Below are positions 6,016-57,818 of a DNA stretch of 60,790 nt, piece after piece. Made by a program: the position numbers and the translations under genes. The notes beneath the pieces are model-generated. The model saw only the letters and a program-made list of their open reading frames with translations, did no database searches and was not told where the DNA came from. The stretch lies in the IMG/VR virus record IMGVR_UViG_3300044984_001645, positions 1-60,790 of that record; one strand, 5' to 3'. The stretch comes from a virus. Its lineage: Duplodnaviria > Caudoviricetes. Numbering within the stretch: position 1 is the first letter of the stretch; every line of letters begins with the position of its first letter.

Positions 6016-6018
6016 CAA

Positions 6019-10293: not shown

Positions 10294-10294
10294 G

Positions 10295-33806: not shown

Positions 33807-34074
33807 GCTAACGCATGAACAATTAGAAATGGAAGCAGATGCAGCACTTGATATTGAATATCAATCTCATCTTAAAGGTATTCCGGCTCAAGAATATATG
33901 AAATTGATGACACAAAGTGTCAATGAAAGAGTTGAAGTTATAGGTGATGATTACGAAATCGGTGATGAATATGATTGGGATAGATCAGATAGAAGCCAAT
34001 ATTGCAAGCATGGTAAATTCATTGGCTCTTGGTGGGGACCAGATATTCTCTGTGGTTATTGTGAATCCGAATAG
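33799..34074 (+). CDS. Hypothetical protein
   Basis: CKHG...LCGYCE. Confidence 0.6.
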   Translation: MDELTHEQLEMEADAALDIEYQSHLKGIPAQEYMKLMTQSVNERVEVIGDDYEIGDEYDWDRSDRSQYCKHGKFIGSWWGPDILCGYCESE

Positions 34075-34168
34075 GAAATATAGAGCCTCAGCGCATACTA
34101 AAATTGACAGAAAAAATAAAGATAAATCAACGGGCGTAAAGCCAAAACTAAAATGAAAGAAGAAGAAA

Positions 34169-34747: not shown

Positions 34748-34776
34748 CAACAAAACAACAAAAAGGAAAAATAATA

Positions 34777-35211
34777 ATGGAAACACCACAACAGAAACTT
34801 GAAGCAATTTATAATTTGCTTCATGGTAAAGATGATACAAAGCAAGCATTAGCTTATGGTATCACAAAAGACAAAGATAGCAATATTCTTATTAGCAAGA
34901 TCCTTGCTAAAGGTGATGATATCTATGAAATGATTGATGAACTTCATGAAGATGAAGGTTATTTGGTTAATGATTTTGTAACCTTAAGAACAACTGGTTG
35001 GGCAGCACCTTTGAATAATAAAGGTGAAATGGAAGGTGCGCCAAGTGTTCACCCAGACCGTAGGCGTGTATCTTTATTGGTAAGTTTGGATATTGTAAAC
35101 AAAGAAGTAATTGGTAGCTCTCTTAAATTTGATGATGATGAAGAAGTTATTTATGACTTCAATCAAGCAACTGGTTCATTGGCAATGGCAATGGAAAGCT
35201 TGATTTCATAA
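34777..35211 (+). CDS. Hypothetical protein
   Basis: RBS AAGGA; TTGWAAP...PSVHPDRRRV. Confidence 0.7.
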   Translation: METPQQKLEAIYNLLHGKDDTKQALAYGITKDKDSNILISKILAKGDDIYEMIDELHEDEGYLVNDFVTLRTTGWAAPLNNKGEMEGAPSVHPDRRRVSLLVSLDIVNKEVIGSSLKFDDDEEVIYDFNQATGSLAMAMESLIS

Positions 35212-35696
35212 TGGGTTTAGATAATATGCCAATGGTTTATCCTTGCGTAAAGGAAAACACAGCCATTATGAAAGATGGTCGGATTGATTGTGAAGCAACT
35301 ATAAAGGCTGATCAATGTCCATATAAAAGAGAAAAAGAAAATGATCCATTAACTCAAGACATGCGTTCAGTATATGGAATGTTTGGAACTGATTGTTGGT
35401 ATAGAGGTAAGTATGGTAATAACCTACTCGCTAAAATGAAGCGTCATAACAATGATTTCCCATATGATGAAGATGGATTTTATGGAGATGGTGAAGATGG
35501 TATATCAGAAGATGAATGTTCAAACATGTCAGATGTAATGATTAACTTTACTGAATCATGGGTTCATTATGTTAATACCAATAGTGATTACGAAACAGAA
35601 GAAGAAAGGAAAACTTTAATTGACGACTGGATTTATGCAGCTTGGTGGTTAAAGTTTGTAGGAAATTATGGAGAAGGCTCAGGAGTCTGGTACTAA
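35211..35696 (+). CDS. Hypothetical protein
   Basis: MGLD start, WYRGKY; coupled. Confidence 0.7.
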   Translation: MGLDNMPMVYPCVKENTAIMKDGRIDCEATIKADQCPYKREKENDPLTQDMRSVYGMFGTDCWYRGKYGNNLLAKMKRHNNDFPYDEDGFYGDGEDGISEDECSNMSDVMINFTESWVHYVNTNSDYETEEERKTLIDDWIYAAWWLKFVGNYGEGSGVWY

Positions 35697-35700
35697 ATAG

Positions 35701-36069
35701 ATGTTCAATATGGATGACTTTGAAAATATAAAAAAACCTAGTGAAAGAGAGGAGGCTCCAGATTATATGATTGAAGACCACGATTTCCTAAATCAGATGA
35801 TGACGATTGCAAGAATCATTAAAGAAACTGATTTTAGTAATCACGAAAGTCGTGCATCATTCATTATGCATATGATTAATATGTCAATTGATAACCCCGA
35901 TGAAATCCATGAGAAATCATTGGATGTTGTTAGTGCATTATCTTCTCATATTTGCATGATGATGATGACAATCAATGGTGGAAAAGAAACATATCTATCC
36001 AGTTATGATGATTCTGTTATTCAACCAATGATAGATAATGGTCCAAACATTCCAATCTGGGATAATTAA
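35701..36069 (+). CDS. Hypothetical protein
   Basis: Packed ORF. Confidence 0.6.
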   Translation: MFNMDDFENIKKPSEREEAPDYMIEDHDFLNQMMTIARIIKETDFSNHESRASFIMHMINMSIDNPDEIHEKSLDVVSALSSHICMMMMTINGGKETYLSSYDDSVIQPMIDNGPNIPIWDN

Positions 36070-36070
36070 T

Positions 36071-36424
36071 ATGCCAACAATTACAATTAATTGGTTAGAT
36101 GAAGCTGCTTGTTTAGGACAAGGAGCACATTTATTTTATGCCGATACTGTTTATACAGCAGAAACAAAAAAGATCATAGCCAAAGCAAAAACATTTTGTA
36201 AAAGCTGTCCTGTTGTTGCTGATTGCTTACAGTATTCAATTAACAATGATGAAAGGTTTGGGGTTTGGGGTTCTTTTTCTTCAAAAGAAAGAGCATCAAT
36301 CCGAAATCATTTGAAAACCAATGAGATAACAAAAGGACAAGCCGAAGCAATGGTTAATAAAACAGTATTGCAAGTAAAAGATGCATTCAGAAATACAATA
36401 TTCGTGGAGGGTAATAATGCCTGA
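36071..36424 (+). CDS. whiB: WhiB-family transcription factor
   Basis: WLDEAAC...AKTFCKSCPVVADCLQYS...ERFGVWGS...ER. Confidence 0.92.
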   Translation: MPTITINWLDEAACLGQGAHLFYADTVYTAETKKIIAKAKTFCKSCPVVADCLQYSINNDERFGVWGSFSSKERASIRNHLKTNEITKGQAEAMVNKTVLQVKDAFRNTIFVEGNNA

Positions 36425-36540
36425 TGATATGAATCTTAATTTTGAAGGCAAGATAACAAACAAGGATGTAAGGGATATATTACATGTCCCAGTATTCGTT
36501 ACTAAATCAATAGACAACAGTAAAGAGAAAGAAGAAGACA

Positions 36541-36900
36541 GTGAAGACTGAAAATAAAACATGTGAACAATTAGTTGATTCACAAATGCAAGACCGTAAT
36601 GAATATTTAGAAGGACTAAATGACATTATTGGAGATAATGAATCTGATACCGAAAAGGTAGAAGAAGCATTGAGGGAAATCATGGAATTCCCTGCCGGTG
36701 TTGAATCCTATAAAGTAATTAAGATTGTTTTATCAGGTGGAGGTCCGGCAGATTGGATTGAAGTTAAAACCGATAATGAAGGTTATATTCTAGGAATGGA
36801 ATATCATTATGCAGATTGGTTTGACCACGCAGAAAGAAAGATCTCAGAGAATTCATATCTTTGGGATTTTGCAGCACAAATAGTAGAAACAGAAGGATAA
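36541..36900 (+). CDS. Hypothetical protein
   Basis: LSGGGPADWIE...YHYADWFD. Confidence 0.65.
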   Translation: MKTENKTCEQLVDSQMQDRNEYLEGLNDIIGDNESDTEKVEEALREIMEFPAGVESYKVIKIVLSGGGPADWIEVKTDNEGYILGMEYHYADWFDHAERKISENSYLWDFAAQIVETEG

Positions 36901-36905
36901 GTAAA

Positions 36906-37538
36906 ATGGAAAACATAGATGTAACATTGGGAATTAACGAAGAAGCTCTTGAAAAGCTTGCTCAAAAAGTAATTGAAAGTATTGATATTCAGGATCATTT
37001 AGATATGAGTCAGGTTGTTGATAATCGTATTGAAGCATATGATTTTGATGGAATCATTGAGCAATGGATTGATTACAACATAGATATTGATGACAAAGTG
37101 TCTAATGCGTTACCTGATGCTCTTTCAGATATTAACTTTAAAGACTACATTGATACTGATGATTTTGAAATTGATGCTGAAAGTGAAGCTAGAAGCCTTC
37201 TTGAAAACTATAGCCCATTAGCAAGCTGTAGCACTGGTCAAGCTTTTACTAGCGCAATTGAAGATGCAGTTCGTTATCTTTTACTGAAAGATGAAGACTT
37301 TGTTGAGCATATTGCAAAAGCATTGAACAAGCTTGAGAAGAAGCAGATGATGGAAGAAATCAGAGAATCTGTTAAAGAAGAACTAAAGCCTCTTATGTTT
37401 GATAGTTTTAAAGCTGAACTTGAGCGTTATGCAGCCCATGTTGAATACGAAAAAGCTCAACAGATTATTACACAGACTAATGCTGTTGTTATCCCAGAAG
37501 TTACACCGTGGACTCGTGAAAACGATATCGGTTACTAA
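36906..37538 (+). CDS. Acidic coiled-coil hypothetical protein
   Basis: Asp/Ile-rich repeats; RBS AAGGA. Confidence 0.65.
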   Translation: MENIDVTLGINEEALEKLAQKVIESIDIQDHLDMSQVVDNRIEAYDFDGIIEQWIDYNIDIDDKVSNALPDALSDINFKDYIDTDDFEIDAESEARSLLENYSPLASCSTGQAFTSAIEDAVRYLLLKDEDFVEHIAKALNKLEKKQMMEEIRESVKEELKPLMFDSFKAELERYAAHVEYEKAQQIITQTNAVVIPEVTPWTRENDIGY

Positions 37539-37553
37539 ACAAAAATACAAATC

Positions 37554-37581
37554 AGAGGGGGGAAGCAATTCCCCCCTCTTT
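37554..37581 (+). terminator. Intrinsic terminator-like hairpin
   Basis: AGAGGGGGGAA-GCAA-TTCCCCCCTCT-TT. Confidence 0.7.
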
Positions 37582-37598
37582 CTATAAAGGAAAATAAA

Positions 37599-39278
37599 AT
37601 GCTAAAAGATTATATTGTAATCTCAAACAAAGCCGAAACCGTAAGTCGTATCTCTTTAGAAAAGCTAGGTTTTTCTACCAAGAGGAATGACGCTAAGACT
37701 ATTGGTCAATTTGGTTCTGGAATTAAATATGCACCAATTGCTGCGCTAAGAGAAGGACTTGAATGGTTCTTTACTGGAAACGATAATACCGGTCCATTCA
37801 CTCTTGAATACATTATTCAAGAAGAAGATGGTATCGATTGTGTTGCTTATAAGTATGGAGATTATATTAAATCTTCATCCTTTACTATTGATGCAGGAGT
37901 AATGTCATGGGAAGACCCATTTCAAATCTTGCGTGAACCTATTGCTAATGCAATGGATGGAGCAAAAATGACTGAAGATGGATGGTATAACATTTTTGTT
38001 GTAACTGTTGATACAGATAATCCAGAATCAATGAAGAAACTTGAACCTCGTGATGGAATCTTTTCTGTTTATATCACAGCTTCTCCGGAGTTGATGAAGG
38101 TAATTGATAACTATGATAGTTACTTCTCTGTAAACCGTGAAGTCGCCTGTGAGAACAGCAATGGAAAGATTCTTGATAAGATCGGTTCAGGAGCTAATTT
38201 TTATTCATTGAATGTTCTTGTAAAGCAAGATGATAATTTAACATCTGTGTTTGATTATCAATTTGATGATCTTGAACTAAACGAAGAGAGAACAATAAAG
38301 TCTTTATGGGATCTTGATTACAAAGTATCCAAAATGATTGCCGGAGTTGGCAACTTAGATGTTATTGAAGAATACATGACTGAATTCATTAAAGCTAAAG
38401 CGGAAGATTCTGGAATTTGGGAATTGAGTCGTTTGTCAAATCAAAACTTTAAATACTTCACAAGAGAAATTGCTTCTTGGCAAGGTGTTTGGAATAAACT
38501 CTATACTGACAAAGCCATTATGCTTACTAATGATCAAAATAATGACCAATTCAGAATGGGTGTTATTAATCGTGGGTATAAGCCAATAGTAGTTTCGAAC
38601 AAAGCTGCTTATAATCTATTCCTAGCGATGGAAATTAAAACAATATTTGACATTCTTGGTGATCAAGTTGATTACGAAATTGATGATGATATTAGTGGAT
38701 ATCCTCGTTTACTTGATGCAATCCAAATTGCCTCATATTTTGAGAGCGGTTTGATTTCCTTACAGAATGAAATTGGCGTGTTCGAAAGTAAAAAAGAAGG
38801 TGTATTGGGAATGTGTGTGAGTATTGGTGATAATAAAAAGCGTATTGTCATTGAGAAATATCACGCTAAGAATGGAACGATTGAGGAACTTGTTGGCACC
38901 GTAATTCATGAGTTTGATCATTACAGCACTGATGTCGGTGATTCATCAGATATGATTGGGCGAGAGTTCAGGAATATTGCAGACACAAGAATTGGTAGAC
39001 TGATGGTTGAGAATTACAAAAAACACATTCTTCAGAAGAAGTTTGGTGGTGCATACATTGCTATTAACAATATGACATCAATGTCAAATCTTAACTATAC
39101 CTCAGAGTATTCTGAAGTTCTTGATAAAACAATCCTTGGTATTGGTGGATTGAGTTTCATTATTGAATGCAATAAGTCAGCAATTGAGAAATCAGGTACT
39201 TGTTTTATTGATAAATCAGGTGAGTACTTGTATGTTCCTATTAATGGAGAATTTGAAATCGTAAAGGAGATTGTATAA
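37599..39278 (+). CDS. GHKL-type ATPase-like protein with C-terminal HExxH motif
   Basis: LGFSTKR...IGQFGSGIK, LREPIANAMD, VIHEFDH. Confidence 0.7.
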   Translation: MLKDYIVISNKAETVSRISLEKLGFSTKRNDAKTIGQFGSGIKYAPIAALREGLEWFFTGNDNTGPFTLEYIIQEEDGIDCVAYKYGDYIKSSSFTIDAGVMSWEDPFQILREPIANAMDGAKMTEDGWYNIFVVTVDTDNPESMKKLEPRDGIFSVYITASPELMKVIDNYDSYFSVNREVACENSNGKILDKIGSGANFYSLNVLVKQDDNLTSVFDYQFDDLELNEERTIKSLWDLDYKVSKMIAGVGNLDVIEEYMTEFIKAKAEDSGIWELSRLSNQNFKYFTREIASWQGVWNKLYTDKAIMLTNDQNNDQFRMGVINRGYKPIVVSNKAAYNLFLAMEIKTIFDILGDQVDYEIDDDISGYPRLLDAIQIASYFESGLISLQNEIGVFESKKEGVLGMCVSIGDNKKRIVIEKYHAKNGTIEELVGTVIHEFDHYSTDVGDSSDMIGREFRNIADTRIGRLMVENYKKHILQKKFGGAYIAINNMTSMSNLNYTSEYSEVLDKTILGIGGLSFIIECNKSAIEKSGTCFIDKSGEYLYVPINGEFEIVKEIV

Positions 39279-39393
39279 TGGATAAGTTAACTTGGGTTAT
39301 TTGTATCTTATTAGTATTTGTTGCTTTTCCAGTATTGGCAGCTATTACTCTAGGATTTGTCTTTGCTTTAATGCTAGGCGGAAGTATTAGCTG

Positions 39394-39774
39394 ATGCCTA
39401 AATTTGAAAACTATTTCATTGTTGAATATCGTTATCCTGTAAAAGTAGAAGATGTATCTACTGTTCAGGAAGCTATGTCTAAGTCAAACAGAATCTGCGA
39501 AAGAATGTTTGGTTTCAAACCGGACAATTGGTTTGCCAGAATCTTTGAGTATTCAACAAGACAAAAGGATCCGGGATTAGTAAAGGAATACTTTTACAAT
39601 CCCAACTCCTTAACATATAGAGAGATTACAAAGAATTTTGGATACTTTGCACAACTATTAGCTGATGGTAAAACACCAGAAGATGTTGTTAATTACGAAG
39701 AAGTCTTTGGTCGCCTTGAAGCTGATGGTGAAGTTAAAATAATCTACAAGGAAGTAAAAGATGGTGAAGGATAG
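39394..39774 (+). CDS. Hypothetical protein
   Basis: Packed ORF. Confidence 0.6.
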   Translation: MPKFENYFIVEYRYPVKVEDVSTVQEAMSKSNRICERMFGFKPDNWFARIFEYSTRQKDPGLVKEYFYNPNSLTYREITKNFGYFAQLLADGKTPEDVVNYEEVFGRLEADGEVKIIYKEVKDGEG

Positions 39775-40198
39775 AATTGTACTTTGTGCTGGTTGCCTAG
39801 AAAGGTTTAGTTCAGACAAAACTGAAGTTTATCGTAGAAAGAGATGCTGTGGAAATCAAAATTGTATTCAGGTAATTGACCAAAAAGTAACCAACGCAAA
39901 TTATAAAAGACAACAGAAGAAAATCAAGAATGGTAAATTCCGGCATGGAGTTCCAATTGATTTAAAACAAAAGGTATATGAAAGAGATGGGGATAGCTGC
40001 AAGCTATGCCTAAATCTTATTAAAGAAAAAGAAAGAGAAATTCATCACATCGTTCCTGTGTCAGAAAGTGGTTCGGATGATTTGATGAATTTGATATTAC
40101 TTTGCAACAATTGTCACACAACAGTTCACAAGAAAGGACATGAGAATTACTATGGCAAATTTAGAACCTATATTAACAGCTTGGACAAAGTATATTGA
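39761..40198 (+). CDS. HNH endonuclease (McrA-like)
   Basis: VYERDGDSCKLC...EIHHIVP..ESGSDDLMNLILLCNNCH. Confidence 0.9.
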   Translation: MVKDRIVLCAGCLERFSSDKTEVYRRKRCCGNQNCIQVIDQKVTNANYKRQQKKIKNGKFRHGVPIDLKQKVYERDGDSCKLCLNLIKEKEREIHHIVPVSESGSDDLMNLILLCNNCHTTVHKKGHENYYGKFRTYINSLDKVY

Positions 40199-40373
40199 GG
40201 ACAACGAACTCTATAAATGGTGTGAATCAATTACATTTTTGTTAGAGATTTTCTCAACAGATATGGAGTTCAAAATAAAGCTAATTGAGGAAGCAAACAA
40301 GTTCTTCCTTGTGAAGCTTAATGACGATGCTAAATCGGATGTGTTCTTCTTTCTACTTGGAAAGCTTAAATGA
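40140..40373 (+). CDS. Hypothetical protein
   Basis: Packed ORF; start uncertain. Confidence 0.45.
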   Translation: MRITMANLEPILTAWTKYIEDNELYKWCESITFLLEIFSTDMEFKIKLIEEANKFFLVKLNDDAKSDVFFFLLGKLK

Positions 40374-49523: not shown

Positions 49524-49672
49524 TAGAAGAAGAGATGTCTTCGACATACACAGGTATATACACATATCTGTGGATTAGATTGTGGATAAGCTCTAAAACT
49601 AGTAGCTTATGTATGTTAAGCGCTCCACATTACGAAAATATATACCAATCGTGTGGTAGTAACATGACAATT

Positions 49673-49718
49673 AAAAGCCTTAGAGGTAAGTTAAATCTTA
49701 TCTTTAGGGCTTTTTTTT
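49673..49718 (+). terminator. Intrinsic terminator ending the + strand block
   Basis: AAAAGCCTTAGAGGTAAG...CTTATCTTTAGGGCTTTT plus T run. Confidence 0.75.
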
Positions 49719-49803
49719 GTGCCTAAAATTAGCATAAAGTAAAGAATAATCGTTGATTTTGTGCAATTATTAGCCAAAAACATGCTATTTTGTATCAAAA
49801 CAT

Positions 49804-49817
49804 AGAACATATGTTCG
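49804..49817. promoter_or_regulatory. LexA (SOS/Cheo-type) box candidate
   Basis: AGAAC-ATAT-GTTCG vs consensus CGAAC-N4-GTTCG. Confidence 0.5.
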
Positions 49818-50498
49818 TATCATGTGGATAACTTCGGATATGTACTAAAATTAAGGTTAAAGTTAAAGAAAAACAGCCTACATTGATGAGCGGAATACAT
49901 ATTCCCTATCTATCTTCTATCTATATCCCTATCTAGAAGCTAAGACAATACCTAACCCGGAACTTTGCGGGAAAAGCTCATATCTTGAGACGAGATAAGA
50001 CCCCCTTACCCTATTTATATCTCTAGGGATAAAGTAAATAACAATATTAGAAGGTATATACCCCGATAGTTAATGTGTTAGGGAATTAGGTAGAGAATGT
50101 GATAGTAGGTAACCCAAATGCCGGCGATAATAATGCGAAAGTTACGGGGTTGTAATTTGAATTGGTTAATCTCCTATATAGAGAGAGATACACCTAGGGG
50201 AATAGATAAACCAATAGCCCCGCCTAACTCCTCAGACCTCATAATTTGAAAGGGATACTGATCCCTTACCCTTATCTTAAAAGTAAATTGAAATTTAAAG
50301 ATAATAGTAGAGAGTTTCATCATGATTGGTAAATACATTAAATTAATATGAAAGATAAAGTTAAATTTAATTGGTGTCCAAAATGCTAAAGCATTTATGG
50401 TACCCCAACCATAATTTGAAACCTATAGTAGTCCCTTACCGTATAGGTATCGTTTGGAGAATGTATTAAATTAATAATAAAGATAAAGGTAAACGAAA

Positions 50499-50535
50499 CT
50501 GGTGTTCAAGTGCTTTAGCACGCCCAGAACACCAG
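50499..50535. repeat. Inter-cassette hairpin H0
   Basis: CTGGTGTTC-AA-GTGC-TTTA-GCAC-GCCCA-GAACACCAG. Confidence 0.8.
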
Positions 50536-50546
50536 CGATTTTGGGC

Positions 50547-50577
50547 AAAAAAAAAGGTACCCTTTCGGGTACCTTTT
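50547..50577 (-). terminator. Intrinsic terminator, cassette 1
   Basis: - strand GGTACCC-GAAA-GGGTACC plus U9. Confidence 0.85.
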
Positions 50578-50609
50578 CTAAAATCCTTTCGATTTTAATT
50601 TAACTTTCG

Positions 50610-50960
50610 TTAAGCATTCGCCTTACGAGAGATTACCATTTGACCATTATCCAACCAATTAATTTGGATTTCAATTCCCAATTTCTCGGAAACACTTTCG
50701 GCACGATTTCGGTATCGCATTTTGTCGGCTTGGACTTTGGTTTGTTCCTGATTAAGGTTTACCGTAGCCTCACTCCAAATGAATGCGTCACCGATTTCGT
50801 TCGGGTCAAGTGACAAAATATCCGTTGCCAAAACTGGGTTTTCGTATGGAGGTTTTCCACGCTTAACCAATTTGGATTGGATTTCGGAAAGGTTAATTTT
50901 GACATTAACCTTTTTTGACGGGTCGCCTGCGTTATCGCTCGGCTTAGTGGTGTTACTCAC
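50610..50960 (-). CDS. Cassette 1 ORF: small protein, paralog of cassette 2 (leaderless GTG start)
   Basis: LVKRGKPPYENPVLATDILSLDP identical to ORF 51271; GTG 6 nt after the -10. Confidence 0.8.
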   Translation of the reverse strand: MSNTTKPSDNAGDPSKKVNVKINLSEIQSKLVKRGKPPYENPVLATDILSLDPNEIGDAFIWSEATVNLNQEQTKVQADKMRYRNRAESVSEKLGIEIQINWLDNGQMVISRKANA

Positions 50961-50966
50961 ATACAT

Positions 50967-50998
50967 ATAATACTCATGGCTTGAAACTATGTATTAAA
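50967..50998 (-). promoter_or_regulatory. Cassette promoter P1
   Basis: TTTAAT-acatagtttcaagccatgag-TATTAT. Confidence 0.75.
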
Positions 50999-51156
50999 TA
51001 ATGCCATATATTAGACCCTGAACGGCGGGCGCACGAGTTCTGCTGAAGCTCCCCGCACGCCCGCCATGATTTGAATAGTATTTTGAGACACTACGGGGTT
51101 CCTTACCATGATTTGGAAATGTGAGTGAAATTTTATTCATAGCTACACCGGTAGAA

Positions 51157-51195
51157 GCTGGCGTTCAAGTGCTTTAGCACGACCCGAACGCCAGC
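51157..51195. repeat. Inter-cassette hairpin H1b
   Basis: GCTGGCGTTC-AA-GTGC-TTTA-GCAC-GACCC-GAACGCCAGC; compensatory change relative to H0. Confidence 0.8.
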
Positions 51196-51205
51196 GATTT
51201 TGGAT

Positions 51206-51234
51206 AAAAAAAAAGCCCGCCCCGAAGGGCGAGC
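51206..51234 (-). terminator. Intrinsic terminator, cassette 2
   Basis: UUCG-loop stem plus U9 on - strand. Confidence 0.8.
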
Positions 51235-51270
51235 CATAAAAAGCCTTCCGACTTTTTTATTGGGGGGATA

Positions 51271-51615
51271 TTATTGAGGTGAGCCGAGCGAGATAATCAT
51301 CTGCCCGTCATCTTGCCAGTTGATAGCGATAACGATACCGCACTTCTCAGCAACGCTGAGGGCACGATTACGGTACTTCATCTTCTCTGCCTGAACCTTG
51401 TCCTGTGGCGCTGTGAGGTTCACAGTCGCTTCTGACCAGTAGAAGGCATCGCCCTCAACTGTTGGGTCAAGTGAGAGAATATCAGTCGCTAGGACTGGGT
51501 TCTCATAGGGGGGCTTGCCTCGCTTGACGAGATTAGCCTTTATGCTATTTAGGTTCACCTTTTTATTGGTGCTGGTTGTCGGTTCCGCTTTGCGGTCACC
51601 TGTGCTTGTTGCCAT
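51271..51615 (-). CDS. Cassette 2 ORF: small protein, paralog of cassette 1 (leaderless ATG)
   Basis: Strong similarity to ORF 50610; ATG 6 nt after the -10. Confidence 0.82.
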   Translation of the reverse strand: MATSTGDRKAEPTTSTNKKVNLNSIKANLVKRGKPPYENPVLATDILSLDPTVEGDAFYWSEATVNLTAPQDKVQAEKMKYRNRALSVAEKCGIVIAINWQDDGQMIISLGSPQ

Positions 51616-51621
51616 ATAGAT

Positions 51622-51653
51622 ATAATACTGATGCCTTCCGAATATGTATTCAA
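51622..51653 (-). promoter_or_regulatory. Cassette promoter P2
   Basis: TTGAAT-acatattcggaaggcatcag-TATTAT. Confidence 0.8.
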
Positions 51654-51790
51654 TATGGGAATATATTAGACCCAGTTTGGCTGGTGCTTAAGTGAGCTGA
51701 AGCTCCCCCGCACACCAGACATTTCCGGGATCATGAGACCATGTACTCAATTTCGTCATAAAGGCTTTCCATGTAGGAGTGGTGTTAGGC

Positions 51791-51827
51791 AAAAAAAAAG
51801 GAGGAGGTCTTGCGACCCCCTCCCTTT
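51791..51827 (-). terminator. Intrinsic terminator, cassette 3
   Basis: GCAA-loop stem plus U9 on - strand. Confidence 0.8.
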
Positions 51828-51839
51828 CGGAGTGTGTGC

Positions 51840-52235
51840 CTAGGCTATGGCTAGGAACTCAACGATTGCCTGTGAGTAAAGGTGACCCTCTACCTTCATG
51901 TGTTCGCCTAGCAATGCTTCGGCATCTCTCACTGCTGGTAGCAATGTCTCCTGAATGGTGAACAATGTCTCGTAGTAGGTAGCCTTCGTGACTGTCTCGC
52001 TATCGTCACGGGTCACTGTCGTGATGACCGTCTGAGTAGCGTCTAGGAGTGTGTCTCCTACTGTTCGGGCTTGTTCTAGGAAGAACATATAATTGTCTCC
52101 TGAGTCGTGGTCAGATTGAATCATGACCTTAATGAATGCCTTAGTGAATATCTCCACGAAGGTGTTGAGTGTGCTAGAGAACACATTCAGACTAAGTATC
52201 TGAACTGGCTCGCAGGGTTCAAGTAGTGGTTCCAA
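51840..52235 (-). CDS. Cassette 3 ORF: hypothetical protein
   Basis: RBS GAAAGG then TTG at 52235. Confidence 0.7.
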   Translation of the reverse strand: MEPLLEPCEPVQILSLNVFSSTLNTFVEIFTKAFIKVMIQSDHDSGDNYMFFLEQARTVGDTLLDATQTVITTVTRDDSETVTKATYYETLFTIQETLLPAVRDAEALLGEHMKVEGHLYSQAIVEFLAIA

Positions 52236-52279
52236 TGTTACCTTTCCGCAGTTCGTTAGTTCACTGCTTCCATACATAC

Positions 52280-52311
52280 ATAATACATATGCCTTTAGAA
52301 TATGTATTTAA
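52280..52311 (-). promoter_or_regulatory. Cassette promoter P3
   Basis: TTAAAT-acatattctaaaggcatatg-TATTAT. Confidence 0.75.
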
Positions 52312-52390
52312 TTTGGGAATATATCCATACGCTGTTCGTTTGGTGTGAAAGGGGACTTAAGATCCCCTGCACTCCAACGATTTCATAGGC

Positions 52391-52424
52391 AAAGAAAAAG
52401 GGCAGGTACCGAAGTACCTGCCCT
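52391..52424 (-). terminator. Intrinsic terminator, cassette 4
   Basis: GGGCAGGTAC-UUCG-GTACCTGCCC plus U tract. Confidence 0.85.
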
Positions 52425-52438
52425 CATCTTGGGGGTTG

Positions 52439-52744
52439 TTACAGATGACCGTAACGATGACCCTTCTCACGCTCGGGTTCATTGTAATGACGGACTGGCA
52501 AGATAACCCGAGGCTCATTCTTATGTTCAGTATGACCCTCAAGGCATTGCTGGCACTCACACACGATTGTGTAGCGTGTGTACATCTCCAACTGGCGGAG
52601 TGTGAAGTATGTCTGGTCTTCAAAGTCCTTCCAGCCGAGTATCTTCATGATACGCAAGGCATGGCTAAGTCCCCTCTTATCTATGACACGCATTTGCCAG
52701 TAGGTATCCCAACCATCGGGCAATTGCTGATACATCATTCTCAT
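52439..52744 (-). CDS. Cassette 4 ORF: hypothetical protein (CECQQC)
   Basis: RBS GAAAGGA. Confidence 0.72.
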   Translation of the reverse strand: MRMMYQQLPDGWDTYWQMRVIDKRGLSHALRIMKILGWKDFEDQTYFTLRQLEMYTRYTIVCECQQCLEGHTEHKNEPRVILPVRHYNEPEREKGHRYGHL

Positions 52745-52791
52745 GTGTTCCTTTCATTGTGGGCTACTTGGGTTTCACCCTCACTAACAAT

Positions 52792-52823
52792 ATAATACCC
52801 ATGCCTTTGGAATATGTATTCAA
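52792..52823 (-). promoter_or_regulatory. Cassette promoter P4
   Basis: TTGAAT-acatattccaaaggcatggg-TATTAT. Confidence 0.8.
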
Positions 52824-52901
52824 TATGAGAGTATCCCTACACCGTGTTCGTTTGGTGTAAAAGGGGGCTAAACCCCCCTCGTGCACCAACGAAATCAGGG
52901 C

Positions 52902-52935
52902 AAACAAAAAGGGCAGGTACCGAAGTACCTGCCCT
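52902..52935 (-). terminator. Intrinsic terminator, cassette 5
   Basis: Stem-loop identical to the cassette 4 terminator. Confidence 0.85.
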
Positions 52936-52948
52936 GATTGCTGGGGGT

Positions 52949-53164
52949 CTAACCGTAGATTTCTTCAATCAACGAATCGTATGTGTTGTTTGCGATGAGA
53001 ATGTATGTCTCAAACAGTACCCAGTGAGTCTGGTTCTTCATCGCCTCAAGGAACTTGAAGAACAACTCTTCATAGTCCCCGATGGCTAGGGTGCTCTGGA
53101 GAGTTGTAAGAAGTTCTGTGTACCTCTTATCGACTTGTTCTTTCATGTCTGTCGTTATTTCCAT
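52949..53164 (-). CDS. Cassette 5 ORF: acidic hypothetical protein
   Basis: RBS GAAAGG. Confidence 0.72.
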   Translation of the reverse strand: MEITTDMKEQVDKRYTELLTTLQSTLAIGDYEELFFKFLEAMKNQTHWVLFETYILIANNTYDSLIEEIYG

Positions 53165-53208
53165 TATTACCTTTCGGATAGTTACTTGGGTTTCACTACC
53201 ACATCTAT

Positions 53209-53240
53209 ATCATACTGATGGCTTTAGAATATGTATTCAA
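53209..53240 (-). promoter_or_regulatory. Cassette promoter P5
   Basis: TTGAAT-acatattctaaagccatcag-TATGAT. Confidence 0.8.
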
Positions 53241-53331
53241 TTTGAGAATATACCCATATCATGTTCGTTTGGTGTGAAAGGGCTTAAGCTCACCCTCGCA
53301 CTCCAACGATTTCAGCTTCATAAATAAAGGC

Positions 53332-53363
53332 AAAAAAAAAGAGCCAGCCCGAAGGCTGACTCT
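53332..53363 (-). terminator. Intrinsic terminator, cassette 6
   Basis: UUCG-loop stem plus U9. Confidence 0.8.
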
Positions 53364-53383
53364 CTTTCTTGGGGGGTGTGTGA

Positions 53384-53659
53384 CTACACGAACTCAGGGT
53401 ACATGTAGTGTTTGTCAGGGTAGCACTTGTAGGCACCGTTCATCTTGAACCGAGGGTACCAGCAGATGCCCCATGTCTGCGCCCACTTCTGTGCGAGGTT
53501 GTGGGCTTGCTGTGCATTGACACATGGGATAGTCAGGATGTGACTGTCTGAGGAGTCTCCCGTAGGCGATGACATCACTATGACTACATGAAACTCATGA
53601 GCCTCAATGTGGTTAGGTGTCCCAGCGTAAACGCTAGGTGGTTGTGTTGAGTAGGACAT
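53384..53659 (-). CDS. Cassette 6 ORF: hypothetical protein (alternative in-frame leaderless start at 53701)
   Basis: RBS GAAAGG before ATG 53659; SSPTGDSSDSHI motif. Confidence 0.72.
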   Translation of the reverse strand: MSYSTQPPSVYAGTPNHIEAHEFHVVIVMSSPTGDSSDSHILTIPCVNAQQAHNLAQKWAQTWGICWYPRFKMNGAYKCYPDKHYMYPEFV

Positions 53660-53707
53660 GGTGCCTTTCCAGCCCGTCAGTTGTTCGGGGCTTGCTTCCA
53701 TGTCTAT

Positions 53708-53739
53708 ATAATACTGAAGGCTTAGATATATGTATTCAA
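53708..53739 (-). promoter_or_regulatory. Cassette promoter P6
   Basis: TTGAAT-acatatatctaagccttcag-TATTAT. Confidence 0.8.
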
Positions 53740-53763
53740 TGTGAGAATGTATAGACCCCTCAC

Positions 53764-53807
53764 ACGCTGGAGTTAAAGAAAGCTTAAGCTTTCCAGTACT
53801 CCAGCGT
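53764..53807. repeat. Inter-cassette hairpin H6
   Basis: ACGCTGGAGT-TAAA-GAAAGCTTAAGCTTTC-CAGT-ACTCCAGCGT. Confidence 0.85.
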
Positions 53808-53822
53808 TTTCATTAGGGGCAC

Positions 53823-53848
53823 AAAAAAGGCACCCCCGAAGGGGTGCC
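53823..53848 (-). terminator. Intrinsic terminator, cassette 7
   Basis: GGCACCCC-UUCG-GGGGTGCC plus U6. Confidence 0.8.
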
Positions 53849-53862
53849 CATTTGTTTGCGTT

Positions 53863-54135
53863 CTATCTCTTTTCGTATTTGTCGGAGAAGTGAAGTCCAA
53901 GCCCTACGAATAAGCCTAACGAACCTACGCTACACACTACCCATAGGATAGCCGACCAGTTGGAAGTGGTGTCCATACCTTGAAGGTACCATGTAGGTGC
54001 TAGTGCACTTGTCGGAGCAAGTACCATACAGATAGTGCTCATCAAGCCTAACTCTGTGAAGGAAAGGAATAAGGCGACTAGGGCAGTTCCTAGAACGAAG
54101 GCGGATATTACAGCGAGCACGATATATGTCATCAT
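53863..54135 (-). CDS. Cassette 7 ORF: small membrane protein (about 3 TM segments)
   Basis: RBS GAAAGG; three hydrophobic stretches. Confidence 0.75.
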   Translation of the reverse strand: MMTYIVLAVISAFVLGTALVALFLSFTELGLMSTICMVLAPTSALAPTWYLQGMDTTSNWSAILWVVCSVGSLGLFVGLGLHFSDKYEKR

Positions 54136-54181
54136 GATTGCCTTTCTACGAAAGTTACTTGGGGTTCACTTCCATATCTAT

Positions 54182-54213
54182 ATAGTACCTATGGCTTGAA
54201 TATATGTATTCAA
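54182..54213 (-). promoter_or_regulatory. Cassette promoter P7
   Basis: TTGAAT-acatatattcaagccatagg-TACTAT. Confidence 0.8.
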
Positions 54214-54451
54214 TAAATGAAATATATGAGTCCCTACACTGCGGGCGTAAAGCGTAAGCTTAAGCTGTGCACACCCGCCATTGACTCACCAAACAGAGGA
54301 AAACGAAAAACAAAAAAAAGACGCAGTAGCATGCTACGAATATATACTCAAATTTTCTAAAAAACGGGGTCGGCTGCAAGTGCCGGGTTTTGGTTTAGAA
54401 AACGGGGGAGATGGGGGTTGAATGGGGATTGCTGCTAGAGCGGAGCTGCTG

Positions 54452-54524
54452 CTCCCAGAGTAGGGCTTGAACCTACGACACACGGATTAACAGTCCGTTG
54501 CTCTGCCAACTGAGCTATCTGGGA
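54452..54524 (-). tRNA. tRNA-Asn(GTT)
   Basis: TCCCAGA acceptor, AGCTCAGTTGGCAGAGC D-arm, ACGGA-CTGTTAA-TCCGT, GTAGG-TTCAAGC-CCTAC. Confidence 0.93.
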
Positions 54525-54564: not shown

Positions 54565-55335
54565 TCAATTTGTATTCACTTCTACATTTATCTTCAGAAT
54601 CTTATTGGAGGAATGTTGAGCTACATTGTCTTGTCCTATGTTAGTGATTTCATAACCTAGAGACTCAACATAGGAGAGCAGCTCTTGTCTCCGGGGTTCA
54701 AACCATTCCTTGTTCGCCCACGCTTCAAAGAGAATAGGTGGGAACCCATTTCGCTCAATAGTATTTTTTGCACCCACGAGAACTGCGAGTTCCAATCCTT
54801 CTACATCGATTTTGATGAGCTTGATATCGTTCATTTCAAGTGAGTCCAATGTTTGAACACTAATTAATTCCGTGTTACCACCGGTGGTGCACTCATAGTC
54901 GTTCTGGCGCACCTCGTCATCAAGGCTAAAGGCTCCAATATTCAATTCTGTGGAATAGTCCGGTAACTGAATATAAAATGAATCTGGCTCGTATGACAAG
55001 CCGAAGTTCTTGGCGAACACATTGTCACACCTGTTAAGCAAGATGTTGGAGCAAAGCTGATAAAACACAATTCTTTGCGGTTCAAAGGCGTGGAATGTAA
55101 AGTGGGGGTATCTCTTTGCCAATGGCACACAAAAGCTGCCTACATTTGATCCAATGTCTAATACATTACCAATCTGGTTGATCCTCGCATAATGGTCTAA
55201 AAACATTGAGGCAATATAGAGAACATGTGGTTCATGCCCAAGTTGACTCTTTAAAGCATCTGAAACAATATCATCCTTGTCAAAGAGGAAGAAGCGACAA
55301 TCGCCTCCGTCATATACTGAAGATGATGGGATCAT
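54565..55335 (-). CDS. FkbM-family methyltransferase
   Basis: VLDIGSNVG, HAFEPQ, IKIDVEGLELAVLVGA. Confidence 0.9.
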   Translation of the reverse strand: MIPSSSVYDGGDCRFFLFDKDDIVSDALKSQLGHEPHVLYIASMFLDHYARINQIGNVLDIGSNVGSFCVPLAKRYPHFTFHAFEPQRIVFYQLCSNILLNRCDNVFAKNFGLSYEPDSFYIQLPDYSTELNIGAFSLDDEVRQNDYECTTGGNTELISVQTLDSLEMNDIKLIKIDVEGLELAVLVGAKNTIERNGFPPILFEAWANKEWFEPRRQELLSYVESLGYEITNIGQDNVAQHSSNKILKINVEVNTN

Positions 55336-55346
55336 AAAGACCTTTC

Positions 55347-55565
55347 TTATTCATTATCTCTATTATACCAATGCGATTCACGATATCTCTTCGTGCCGTT
55401 GATATTTGATATTGTTTGCGCAATCTTGCGATGCCGGCGATTCCGTGACCACAAGCTATTGCTAAACCATGAGGAAACAGCCACATACCCGGCATAACCC
55501 ATGCACAATACTGCAAACCACCTTGTTATCAGTACATAGTATCTTTCGGGTGCCACCTTGGTCAT
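55347..55565 (-). CDS. Small membrane protein
   Basis: One hydrophobic segment; coupled to the oxygenase gene. Confidence 0.5.
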   Translation of the reverse strand: MTKVAPERYYVLITRWFAVLCMGYAGYVAVSSWFSNSLWSRNRRHRKIAQTISNINGTKRYRESHWYNRDNE

Positions 55566-56125
55566 GCCGGTCCCTCATCTGGGAGGAAGTTTATGTTTAT
55601 TGCAAATCTAAAAGGACTCAATACCGGATTACTTCCCGCATGGAGGATCTGTCCATCAAACACAACCGCCGTTCCCTTTTTGGGGTCTACTTCTTTTATA
55701 ACATTTAGGTCATCATCATAGAAGTATGTAGGACCGTCTGAGTCGTTCACATAGTACAGACAGACAAGGTGTGGAACCAAACTGCCATCCTCTAGTTTTA
55801 AATCAGTGTGTGGTGTCTGAGGGCTGCACCGAGATGGGTTTGGCATCGTGACATTGACCTTTGCTCGATACAACCGGATGTCTCCATGCTTATCCTGAAT
55901 AGAATTGATTATTGGCAATACAACAGGAAGATTCGGGGACTGTTTTTCTTCCCCCATCATAAAGAGATGATTGGTTAGTTGTTTACCGGAAGAGGATGAG
56001 CTGCCAGTTTCTAATGGATCGTTATGAATATTTTGAAAACGGTAAGGGAATGCGTTGCTAGAGACAAACTCTTCAATTAGGTTTTGATCCTTAAGTGGTA
56101 TGAAGTTTTCAAAAATATCTATCAT
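55562..56125 (-). CDS. 2OG-Fe(II) oxygenase
   Basis: PHTD, LYYVNDSDGPT, FDGQILHAG, RFAININF. Confidence 0.88.
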   Translation of the reverse strand: MIDIFENFIPLKDQNLIEEFVSSNAFPYRFQNIHNDPLETGSSSSSGKQLTNHLFMMGEEKQSPNLPVVLPIINSIQDKHGDIRLYRAKVNVTMPNPSRCSPQTPHTDLKLEDGSLVPHLVCLYYVNDSDGPTYFYDDDLNVIKEVDPKKGTAVVFDGQILHAGSNPVLSPFRFAININFLPDEGPA

Positions 56126-56277
56126 TAGTAACGCTGATTCCGCTCAAGCCTAGATATCTCGCATTCTTGATTGATGATGGTGGACATCATTCCTTCAACC
56201 TTTTCTTTTAGCTTCAGATTCTCTTCTTCAAACATGGCACATCTATCAATCCACCATTTAATTGTCACTCTGTCCAT
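56125..56277 (-). CDS. Small coiled-coil protein
   Basis: MDRVTIKWW start; heptad pattern. Confidence 0.5.
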   Translation of the reverse strand: MDRVTIKWWIDRCAMFEEENLKLKEKVEGMMSTIINQECEISRLERNQRY

Positions 56278-56284
56278 TTGAGGA

Positions 56285-56692
56285 TCACTTTCCACTCTTA
56301 ACTCTTCTTTTCTGGAGTAGGTCAAAGTCTTTAATCTTCGTTTCCCCCATGTACTCCCAAGCAAAGCCATCTTTAATTAGCTGTTCGTTAACAGAAGTCG
56401 GTTGGTCATCAATAAAGATCCATCCGAGAATTCTTCCGTACTTCTCAGTGGAGTCGGGTTTCTCTGTTCTGATAACAATCTTGGTTGCAGCTTTTAGGAT
56501 TTCATCCAATCTTTTCTTTGATTCAAGACCAAGAACTTTTTCACTCTTGTCTGTAGTTCTAGATTCCGGTGTGTCAATACCGGCAAGCCTAACTCTTTGG
56601 TAATAAGAGATATTGAACCCAAGATCAATATCAACATCGATGGTATCCCCATCAACTACTTTGTATAATTTTTTTACGACATATTCGTACAT
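56285..56692 (-). CDS. Staphylococcal nuclease (thermonuclease) homolog
   Basis: KVVDGDTID...RVRLAGIDTPE...KYGRILG. Confidence 0.92.
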   Translation of the reverse strand: MYEYVVKKLYKVVDGDTIDVDIDLGFNISYYQRVRLAGIDTPESRTTDKSEKVLGLESKKRLDEILKAATKIVIRTEKPDSTEKYGRILGWIFIDDQPTSVNEQLIKDGFAWEYMGETKIKDFDLLQKRRVKSGK

Positions 56693-56711
56693 ATATTTTC
56701 CTTTCAAATAG

Positions 56712-56816
56712 CAAAAACCCCGGCTATTTACTTTCGCAGGGATAGTTCCGGGGCTTTCATTGTACTATAACGGTCCCAAGGTAGCCTGCACTTGCGCAAC
56801 AGACACAAAGGGTGTC
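56712..56816 (-). ncRNA. Candidate ~105 nt structured ncRNA
   Basis: TATAAT 6 nt upstream, several stems with GCAA and GAAA tetraloops, final stem plus U5, no ORF. Confidence 0.5.
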
Positions 56817-56830
56817 ACATACATTATACA

Positions 56831-57004
56831 CTATCTGCTATTTTTGTAAAATCCACTTCCCTTTAATTGCATCAAAGGAGCTGAGTAGACTTGTTTTAAT
56901 TCCCCATTGCAGTATTCACAATGTGTCTTCTTTTGGTTTTCTTTTATTGAACGAATCTCTGTATAGAGATGATCATTCTCACACTTGTAATCGTAAATTG
57001 CCAT
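56831..57004 (-). CDS. FmdB-family zinc-ribbon protein
   Basis: MAIYDYKC..DH...CEYC...LKGSGFY. Confidence 0.88.
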   Translation of the reverse strand: MAIYDYKCENDHLYTEIRSIKENQKKTHCEYCNGELKQVYSAPLMQLKGSGFYKNSR

Positions 57005-57005
57005 G

Positions 57006-57818
57006 TTATCTAAATTTTGGGTTGGGGTGATTCGGTTCTGGATAACTTGGACCATTGTACTTGTAACTACCACTTGAGACATTTGCCCCACGAGAGTCAT
57101 AAACTGAATAACTAGTGTTTATTGATCCGTTTGATGTTGTAATTGGAACCTTATTGTGTCTATTGATTGGTGATTCATCAACTGAGTAGAAGAAATCACC
57201 GTCTGCTAAAGCTTTTGGCATGAAGTCATCATTGTTTGACATCGGGAAGAGGAATGTGCCATTGATCCATTTGATTGCAATAATGGAATATCCAATGATG
57301 TCCAGCAAGGTATCTTGAAGAGACTCATTGGATGGACCGGAATTTTTTTTGATTAAATTCTCAAGGCGAGCTACCTTGTCATGAATCCTGATTACTAAAC
57401 CATTAAGACCAAATTTAGCAATGTTGTCTGAACCGTAATCCCTTTGCTTTTTTGTGACAGTTAGAAGTGTCCAGTCTCTATATTCTTCTAAGTTCAAATC
57501 TTTATCTATTTGCTTCAACGACAAAAAAGAAAGAACTGATAGAATACACCAGTAGTTAGCAATGGCGGAAGCTACTTCAAAATCATTTGTTTTATCATGA
57601 TCCCAAACTTTAACTGTGATCATATAATCAACAATAGTCCTCATATTCTCAACAAAATCATTTCCAAGCACCTTGTTGCACAAAGTAACATTTCTTGTAA
57701 TATCCGCAAAAAGTTCTTCATTTTCATAAATAAATTTGAATAGCTCTTTAACAGTAAGAGAGGCTGCTTCTTCCCAAGATTCTGAAAGTTTTGCTGAGAG
57801 TAGATTGGAGAGGACCAT
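57006..57818 (-). CDS. Protein with nucleotide-modification-associated (Nmad1/DUF1599-like, all-alpha NTP-PPase) domain
   Basis: KKQRDYG...IRIHDKVARLENL...ESLQDTLLDIIGYSII. Confidence 0.75.
   Translation of the reverse strand: MVLSNLLSAKLSESWEEAASLTVKELFKFIYENEELFADITRNVTLCNKVLGNDFVENMRTIVDYMITVKVWDHDKTNDFEVASAIANYWCILSVLSFLSLKQIDKDLNLEEYRDWTLLTVTKKQRDYGSDNIAKFGLNGLVIRIHDKVARLENLIKKNSGPSNESLQDTLLDIIGYSIIAIKWINGTFLFPMSNNDDFMPKALADGDFFYSVDESPINRHNKVPITTSNGSINTSYSVYDSRGANVSSGSYKYNGPSYPEPNHPNPKFR

Follow-up and report, generated by a model that had tools for sequence, protein, structure and literature searches.

The window analyzed here is the whole of a 60,790-bp phage contig (IMG/VR record IMGVR_UViG_3300044984_001645; Caudoviricetes). 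Between positions 50,547 and 54,213 it carries an array of seven minus-strand units of one design, each composed of a conserved promoter box (TTGAATACAYAT ... TAnnnT), a short leader, an open reading frame (ORF) of 71-145 amino acids (aa) and a GC-rich hairpin followed by a T-run. The units contain no GATC, AGCT or CCGG, three palindromic words that are frequent in the rest of the window. The depletion is restricted to palindromes, it is confined to the units, and it recurs with a lineage-specific make-up in the arrays of related phages. With moderate confidence we read these as early units, probably located in a terminal repeat of the genome, that have been purged of restriction sites in place since they are needed before host restriction is neutralized, cuts between the units being tolerable.

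The seven ORFs (2,253 bp) have 0 GATC, 0 AGCT and 0 CCGG, as compared with 148, 263 and 113 occurrences in the window. An earlier sequence-only reading of this DNA had reported these zeros, and the raw counts agree with it. Under Markov models of orders 0, 1 and 2 fitted on the ORFs, the expected numbers are 8.5, 9.6 and 6.8 for GATC, 8.5, 8.6 and 8.6 for AGCT, and 7.0, 4.9 and 4.1 for CCGG. We also used synonymous-codon shuffles (n = 3,000), in which the proteins and the codon usage are preserved. The shuffle mean is 8.4 for both GATC and AGCT, and zero was reached in 0 of the 3,000 shuffles for either word. For CCGG the mean is 3.5 (P = 0.015) with codons pooled and 1.9 (P = 0.10) with codons shuffled per ORF. 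The absences of GATC and of AGCT are each significant alone, and that of CCGG is not. Thus the expectation of several copies of each word, as voiced in the sequence-only reading, holds for GATC and AGCT but is weak for CCGG. The sum of the three words in the shuffles has a mean of 17-20 and a minimum of 6.

For comparison, consecutive genes were combined into groups with at least 2.2 kb of coding sequence each. Groups lacking AGCT or GATC number 0 of 16 elsewhere in the window (G0), 0 of 27 in G1 and 0 of 29 in G4, the last two being relatives that possess arrays of their own. The total observed-to-expected (O/E) ratios of the 16 window groups are 1.19 for AGCT, 0.64 for GATC and 1.70 for CCGG. 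The corresponding genome ratios under a maximal-order Markov model are 0.97, 0.58 and 1.28, and none of the three words is avoided genome-wide. In a plain sliding window the array is the minimum, with 5 sites where a span of 2,253 bp has 19.5 on average. An AT-rich stretch of tail genes (3330-5583) comes near this minimum with 6 sites, and it is not depleted relative to its own codon-based expectation. The comparison of observed and expected counts under a Markov background, proposed together with the sequence-only reading, therefore came out in its favor: the depletion is significant for GATC and AGCT, and the array differs from the other gene groups.

Arrays of this type, one per genome, were analyzed in four relatives, G1, G4, G7 and G8. 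We hand-curated 42 cassette ORFs (11,757 bp) from these genomes and the window and compared the observed counts with shuffle expectations; G2, which is without the array region, and G3 and G5, in which no promoter cluster is recognizable, were left out. The observed/expected counts of AGCT are 0/8.0 in G0, 0/7.7 in G1, 0/11.8 in G4, 1/10.5 in G7 and 0/7.8 in G8. In the same order, those of GATC are 0/8.5, 0/8.1, 1/6.6, 11/12.5 and 0/6.3, the G7 array (33900-40200 of G7) keeping this word at the expected rate. The G4 homologs of the G7 cassettes hold 1 GATC, and some of the differences are synonymous (e.g., TTGATC versus CTCATC). For CCGG the counts are 0/3.2, 0/2.0 and 1/8.1 (G8) in the three genomes that have this word. 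With three cassettes in common, G0 and G1 are not independent of each other here; G4, G7 and G8 are linked to these two by distant paralogs only.

The purge extends to further palindromes. Six of the 136 4-mer classes stand at zero in the seven window ORFs, all of them palindromes (ACGT, AGCT, CCGG, CGCG, GATC and GGCC); palindromic classes expect half the count of the others, so that a ranking by zeros alone overstates the effect and the pooled O/E is its fair version. When the 42 ORFs are pooled, the nine lowest O/E classes of 136 are again all palindromes: GGCC (0/39), AGCT (1/45.6), CCGG (1/22.1), CGCG (3/41.3), ACGT (3/33.0), TCGA (9/47.8), TTAA (9/33.5), TATA (6/21.5) and GATC (12/41.8). 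The next-lowest classes are TA-containing non-palindromes with O/E of 0.54-0.68, and for this reason the shortage of TTAA and TATA is probably compositional, reflecting a general dislike of TA-rich words. Interrupted palindromes are also rare in the pooled set (GGNCC 2/28, CCNGG 2/25.2, GCNGC 2/24.6), and GANTC is absent from the G4 and G7 arrays; the genomes carry these four words at 0.5-3.9 per kb. In the window ORFs, GGNCC, CCNGG and GCNGC are at 0 against 4.9, 3.2 and 2.1 expected, each deficit being weak alone.

Random absence, or a side effect of codon usage and base composition, could apply to CCGG, which is marginal alone at the P values given above, and to TTAA and TATA, which are low together with other TA-containing words and have a compositional look that is also found in the repeat ORFs of the Streptomyces phage Coruscant. 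As an explanation of the whole pattern it is practically negligible, given that none of the 3,000 shuffles is free of GATC or AGCT and Markov orders 0-2 agree, that the depletion is palindrome-specific and recurs in four relatives, and that the same method is silent in Coruscant and in other genes of the same genomes.

Two tiers of avoidance are present in one genome. Words of the first tier are purged everywhere: the window has 2 ACGT, 2 CGCG and 0 GGCC, against 32-207 expected, and TCGA is reduced to 41. Words of the second tier are purged in the array alone. The first tier is the same as the classical genome-wide avoidance of restriction sites; the second differs from it in being sub-genomic, since its words, common in the genome at large, are missing only from some 3 kb of units. 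In a set of 68 related loci of at least 6 kb (out of 80), ACGT, CCGG, CGCG, GGCC and TCGA are all absent in 21 loci, and none of them is avoided in 11. This mosaic of avoided words among relatives suggests different host restriction repertoires within one phage family.

To locate the remaining sites, the arrays were divided into ORF, promoter plus 5' untranslated region (UTR), 3'UTR plus terminator, and gap, with terminator ends set by a simple rule. AGCT, pooled, occurs once in ORFs (11,748 bp), never in promoters and 5'UTRs (2,858 bp), twice in 3'UTRs and terminators (2,228 bp) and 38 times in gaps (5,053 bp). The respective counts are 12, 0, 2 and 19 for GATC and 1, 0, 0 and 6 for CCGG; all these compartment counts are pseudo-replicated, as promoters, UTRs and hairpins are homologous repeats and the ORFs alone are independent. 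The complete window units, 2,952 bp in all, are devoid of the three words, and the gaps (835 bp) hold 11 AGCT, 2 GATC and 2 CCGG. The unit, and not the array as a stretch, is kept clean. The spacer sites that the sequence-only reading had named (CCGG at 51148 and 51725, GATC at 51729 and 52361) are present, and AGCT, which it placed at most hairpin apexes, lies near the apex in five of the seven inter-unit hairpins. Its further statement that sites had been pushed into the spacers does not hold: GATC and CCGG occur in the gaps at approximately the ordinary genome level, and AGCT alone is enriched (~7.5 versus ~4 per kb, ~1.7-fold), mostly owing to a conserved, repeated pair in the hairpin arms.

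A comparison of the arrays shows the cassettes to be mobile. ORF1-3 of the window recur in G1 (83-88% identity at the nucleotide level), where other cassettes, plus one extra, replace ORF4-7, the changes being located at spacers. The ORFs could thus have been swapped at spacers and carry the site avoidance and GC content of a source gene pool, in which case the signature would record history and not present selection. The different cassette content of the close relatives G0 and G1, with breakpoints in spacers, would fit such an origin, as would the GC content of the ORFs (47-56% versus 36-39% in the genomes) and the differences among relatives in the words avoided genome-wide (CCGG and TCGA are absent from G4 and G7). 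However, none of the 68 related loci avoids AGCT or GATC genome-wide; avoidance at this scale is limited to subsets of ACGT, CCGG, CGCG, GGCC and TCGA, and the minimum O/E across the loci is 0.25 for AGCT and 0.48 for GATC. The KRG(K/R)P family, a resident of each of the five arrays, is site-free as well (AGCT 0/6.1, GATC 0/8.2 in 6 members, the strict motif having missed some paralogs that can be recognized by eye). The GC content of ORF1 has drifted to 42%, and this ORF is nonetheless free of sites. The arrays also track their own genomes even in homologous cassettes: the G8 array keeps TCGA (8/12.1) and ACGT (3/6.1), like the G8 genome, and the G7 array keeps GATC, which the homologous G4 cassettes do not. 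Finally, ORF2 and ORF3 have homologs (38 and 15 clusters, respectively) solely among unnamed proteins of metagenomic relatives. On these grounds we consider inheritance from a source pool an unlikely origin, and a purely inherited signature seems unlikely too.

Selection in place could have causes other than host restriction. The phage might use early nuclease(s) of its own that cut host DNA at short palindromes, with its templates kept free of these words. The same idea has been proposed for the T5 protein A1 (preprint 10.1101/866236), a staphylococcal-nuclease-like gene is located nearby (56285-56707), and the gap hairpins carry conserved AGCT. We find such self-immunity improbable, as at least six or seven words are purged and their set varies by lineage, which fits varied host restriction systems better; besides, no cassette has a nuclease domain in PHROGs or Pfam, and the rest of the phage genome would also be a target.

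Motif-specific DNA modification could act in another way, if words modified in virion DNA by enzymes of the phage or the host hindered early transcription by the unmodified host polymerase and were for this reason removed from early units. All sites lie outside the transcribed units, and the array has an FkbM-type methyltransferase, a 2OG-Fe(II) oxygenase and a DUF1599 domain among its neighbors, in agreement with this possibility. However, the search for DNA methyltransferases that had been suggested by the sequence-only reading gave no match to Pfam PF00145, PF01555 or PF02086 in the window, G1, G4, G7 and G8, whereas the controls gave hits in 9, 13 and 9 of the 14 genomes. Thus, no enzyme of the C5, N6/N4 or D12 class was found in the five records, of which one relative is rated 100% and one 96% complete, and the modification branch of that reading found no support. 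The large number of words would moreover require many specificities, and a genome that avoids ACGT, GGCC and CGCG throughout points to DNA that restriction enzymes can reach. We give this model very little credence.

Site avoidance confined to one region can be understood only if that region is exposed, or required, at a time when the remaining genome is not. In the scenario that we prefer, purging of early units by host restriction, the units would be under extra local purifying selection against the Type II words AGCT, GATC, CCGG, GCNGC, CCNGG and GGNCC, layered on the genome-wide avoidance of ACGT, GGCC and CGCG. The array would probably lie within a direct terminal repeat of ~5 kb and thus be among the first DNA to enter, and the host polymerase would have to transcribe it while host restriction is still active. 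The rest of the genome could then keep these words, as it would be shielded either by products of the array or by its own delayed entry. A cut in a gap would be tolerated since it would not stop the expression of any unit, and a damaged leading copy of the repeat might be restored by recombination from the copy at the other end. The architecture, with seven conserved promoter boxes, seven intrinsic terminators and small ORFs without known families, fits early genes.

A first-exposed or terminal-repeat location of the array is plausible. Contig depth over 49,600-54,079 exceeds that of both flanks in four of four lake metagenomes (13.7/8.4, 12.2/6.5, 9.65/5.3 and 10.3/5.6), with ratios of 1.6-1.9 that are averaged bins of assembled-contig depth from runs other than the likely source. 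Depth rises near 49.5-49.8 kb and falls at the tRNA-Asn gene. Contig depth adds up different strains and does not equal a copy number; in run X4 it is uneven (7.2-17.8), and GC bias could contribute, though flanks of 43% GC sit at 1x. The G4 contig closes on itself, as a collapsed terminal repeat or a permuted genome would cause it to do. The Streptomyces phages of cluster BE, which are the best cultured matches of this phage, are described as having direct terminal repeats of ~11-12 kb that were detected as 2-fold coverage (PMC5764925; PMC7650747). The repeat proposed here is a deduced one and would span just ~5 kb. In the record of the cluster-BE phage Coruscant, the first 11 kb hold 22 small ORFs, all directed toward the left end, behind ~0.9 kb without genes. 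The repeat ORFs (869-10900) have 55.8% GC versus 47.3% in the rest, and AT-rich words (ATTA, TTAA, AATT) are short in them, as they are in the cassette ORFs. The window array shares this layout and this contrast in GC content (47% versus 38%). The view of the sequence-only reading that this is first-entering DNA thus gains in plausibility from the raised depth in all four runs and from the long-repeat cultured kin.

Phages T5 and BF23 provide the closest mechanistic parallel. They are reported to resist Type I and Type II systems unless a site is located in the first-step-transfer terminal repeat (PMC10644984; preprint 10.1101/866236). Both they and the window have a block of small genes, directed toward the genome end (a putative one in the window), beside a repeat-rich untranslated region (annotation of the T5 record). 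The differences are that the purge here is wholesale and stops at unit borders, and that the polymerase is DnaE-like. No homologs of the T5 pre-early genes A1, A2 and dmp were identified among the seven ORFs by PHROGs and Pfam searches. The analogy with the first-injected DNA of T5 therefore stands as a mechanism; as a precedent for site depletion it fails, since the T5 repeat itself lacks a broad depletion of palindromes.

Several observations weigh against early units purged in a terminal repeat, among them the pseudo-replication of the compartment counts, the composite nature of contig depth and the retention of GATC by the G7 array, as given above. The putative first-entering segment itself holds sites, namely those counted in the gaps and more in its untranslated end. 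A simple T5 rule, by which any first-entering site is fatal, therefore cannot apply as it stands, and the tolerance of gap cuts is an assumption. The T5 terminal repeat has 149 hexamer palindromes versus 140.5 expected, and 25 AGCT, 26 GATC and 15 CCGG. In the same shuffle test, the repeat ORFs of Coruscant have AGCT at 26/25.9, GATC at 49/47.1 and CCGG at 20/25.7 and thus no purge. Purging is therefore not general to early modules in terminal repeats. Both results double as negative controls of the method. Furthermore, no cassette product resembles a known anti-restriction protein in PHROGs, Pfam, PADLOC or Foldseek searches, and the array stretch is in no RNA run; the order of entry, the timing of expression and cleavage are deduced at the level of sequence.

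The sites in the gaps can be reconciled with early restriction most simply if unit expression, and not continuity of the stretch, must survive. The related claim of the sequence-only reading, that each promoter-ORF-terminator unit would stay expressible if the DNA were cut, is strengthened by the finding that the depletion follows units and palindromes, while its premises of cleavage and early timing stay conjectural. As a tentative and rather doubtful extension, the leading repeat copy might be an expendable, restriction-tolerant template: self-sufficient cassettes would work after gap cuts, the genome would be mended from the second copy, and selection would guard expression rather than continuity. 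The gap hairpins with conserved AGCT might then act as preferred break or decoy points.

Restriction acting on a part of the genome has been described in other phages. In Murciavirus, a Type I motif is reported to count only in the first-injected region, and the authors of this 2025 study argue that restriction selects sub-genomically and that site-avoidance surveys ignored location (PMC12455610). In line with our reading of the window, the Autographiviridae described there (Murciavirus, T7) show restriction selection centered on first-entering DNA with variable early genes, some of them anti-defense (PMC12455610). The difference is that the experiments on Murciavirus concern one Type I motif, whereas here a sequence-level signature involves many Type II-like words of 4-5 bp, with sites allowed between units. 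The PeSL cassettes of T4-type phages, described as small genes of unknown function with promoter and terminator modules that are swapped as whole cassettes at these modules (PMC2839356), are similar to the array in having compact promoter and stem-loop terminator modules and in that entire cassettes are swapped, gained or lost from one relative to the next, the modules containing the breakpoints. Unlike them, the array belongs to a phage that is not T4-type and has siphovirus-like replication and packaging genes related to cluster BE, it is a single array and not a set of scattered copies, and its spacers are longer and contain an extra large hairpin. A literature search found no report bearing on region-specific palindrome avoidance, which is not proof that the phenomenon is unpublished.

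The array is a clean, sequence-only example of restriction selecting on a sub-genomic scale. The two-tier pattern could help to find the DNA that uncultured phages express first, and could split host restriction systems into those that a phage can neutralize and those that it cannot. The seven ORFs and their variable relatives are candidates for new anti-restriction or host-takeover proteins. The limitation of the pattern to units raises the question of whether the leading terminal repeat is needed intact or only expressed. The coordinates of the array and of the adjacent features are listed in Table 1.

Table 1. Units, ORFs, gaps and adjacent features of the array (positions in the window)
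Feature	Position	Strand	Description
Untranslated region	49530..50546		~1 kb, AT-rich, between plus-strand block and array; direct repeats, hairpins
Unit 1	50547..50998	-	promoter box 50998; terminator hairpin near 50556-50575
ORF1	50610-50966	-	118 aa, KRGKPPYENP family, GC 42%
Gap, units 2/1	50999..51237	-	hairpin 51023-51066; AGCT 51047, 51141, 51156; CCGG 51148
Unit 2	51238..51653	-	promoter box 51653; terminator 51235-51214
ORF2	51271-51615	-	114 aa, ORF1 paralog; 38 homolog clusters, all metagenomic
Gap, units 3/2	51654..51790	-	hairpin 51679-51721; AGCT 51695, 51701; CCGG 51725; GATC 51729
Unit 3	51791..52311	-	promoter box 52311; terminator 51828-51795
ORF3	51840-52277	-	145 aa, acidic, isoelectric point (pI) 4.3
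Gap, units 4/3	52312..52394	-	hairpin 52336-52380; GATC 52361 near apex
Unit 4	52395..52823	-	promoter box 52823; 5'UTR with GAAAGG; ORF4 52439-52744, 101 aa; terminator 52425-52398
Gap, units 5/4	52824..52905	-	hairpin 52847-52893; without GATC, AGCT, CCGG
Unit 5	52906..53240	-	promoter box 53240; ORF5 52949-53164, 71 aa, acidic; terminator 52935-52910
Gap, units 6/5	53241..53331	-	hairpin 53265-53309; AGCT 53287, 53314
Unit 6	53332..53739	-	promoter box 53739; terminator 53370-53333
ORF6	53384-53659	-	probable start behind GGAAAGG; longest frame, used in the counts, reaches 53701
Gap, units 7/6	53740..53822	-	hairpin 53763-53806 (z-score -5.9); AGCT 53781, 53787
Unit 7	53823..54213	-	promoter box 54213; terminator 53849-53828
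ORF7	53863-54135	-	90 aa, hydrophobic, probably membrane
Stretch upstream of unit 7	54214..54340	-	hairpin 54241-54278; AGCT 54257, 54263; terminator-like hairpin 54338-54322
tRNA-Asn(GTT)	54451..54524	-	just past promoter-proximal edge of array and of raised-depth stretch

The window covers ~58% of the genome of a lake-water phage of ~100-109 kb. The record is one contig with a completeness rating of 58%, and relatives in IMG/VR reach 100,001 bp (96% complete, CheckV) and 108,840 bp (100%), from which this size follows. Several hundred IMG/VR contigs are related to the window, its terminase having 379 matches there. The plus strand up to ~49.5 kb encodes tail genes, a DnaB-like helicase, a DnaE-like polymerase and the large terminase, and a block of minus-strand genes occupies 50.6-60.4 kb. 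The best cultured matches of the terminase (41-42% at the aa level) and of DnaE (37.7%) are both in Streptomyces cluster-BE phages (Stanwilliamsviridae, e.g., Coruscant). Judging from these similarities the kinship is distant, and we do not claim membership in the family. A megablast search of the array against 50,697 phage records identified no near-identical cultured phage, and the 74-nucleotide (nt) tRNA-Asn has no exact match among the genome contigs searched for a host. The putative assignment of the host to Actinobacteria comes solely from the distant likeness to Streptomyces phages. The tRNA-Asn gene is located within 0.1-3 kb of the array in G1, G4, G7 and G8 as well, and in an Rfam scan tRNA alone was above threshold.

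The promoters were not flagged by a generic sigma-70 scan, because the TTGAAT box stands 20 nt from the TAnnnT box. A GAAAGG ribosome-binding site is present in the leaders of four of the seven units. In units 1, 2 and 3 (50966-50998, 51615-51653 and 52277-52311), the first in-frame ATG is 6 nt past the TAnnnT box; these mRNAs may be leaderless, or the true starts may lie further in. ORF3 has GGAAAGG followed by a TTG 42 nt downstream, and the G1 homolog of ORF2 has GTG at this place. The gaps from a terminator to the next promoter are 80-240 bp long, and each has a long imperfect hairpin. A comparison of eight copies of this hairpin gave 13 consensus pairs, 6 of them with compensatory changes. 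In the arrays of G4 (59085-61320), G7 and G8, a second TTGAATACACATTCTC box without a -10 element is located upstream of each gap hairpin, so that the hairpin is flanked by direct repeats in these genomes. GC content is 47% in the array and 38% in the window, individual ORFs having 42-51%. In the five arrays the GC content of the cassette ORFs exceeds that of the respective genome by 9-18 points; possible causes are a match to host codon usage or an escape from AT-binding silencers.

None of the seven ORFs was assigned to a family in PHROGs, Pfam or PADLOC. The KRG(K/R)P family, which includes ORF1 and ORF2 and is defined by the motifs KRG(K/R)P.Y/F..P and KMKYRNR, has 2-3 paralogs at the distal end of all five arrays. 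Its structural model consists of two short helices, a beta-hairpin, a long helix and two strands, and has no PDB fold match. The RG(R/K)P core of the family may resemble an AT-hook. Neither the ORF2-family model (predicted local distance difference test, pLDDT, 80.9) nor the ORF3 model (pLDDT 68.8, a four-helix bundle) has a Foldseek match in PDB at E<=0.001, and a DNA-mimic or anti-restriction fold, considered for the cassettes, was not retained.

The untranslated region next to unit 1 may be the outer end of the terminal repeat. It contains DnaA-box-like 9-mers at 49569, 49581 and 49823, two of them perfect (TTATCCACA) and one with 1 mismatch, two boxes being 3 nt apart; two of the three perfect DnaA boxes of the window lie in this region. 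The pair recalls an arrangement described for the injection-stop region of T5 and could equally mark a replication origin. The boxes are kept in G1 only, being absent from G4 and G7 and represented in G8 by one 1-mismatch box, and their interpretation as a T5-like stop signal was dropped for lack of conservation beyond G1.

On the other side of the array, the stretch 54565-57818 contains genes for an FkbM-type methyltransferase, a 2OG-Fe(II) oxygenase, a staphylococcal-nuclease-like protein and a DUF1599 'nucleotide modification associated' protein, which together may form a nucleic-acid modification module. Finally, a contig from run X5 (depth 3.1) joins 50556 to 51344 and skips 787 bp, approximately one cassette; it may represent a natural deletion variant formed between repeated parts of the spacers.

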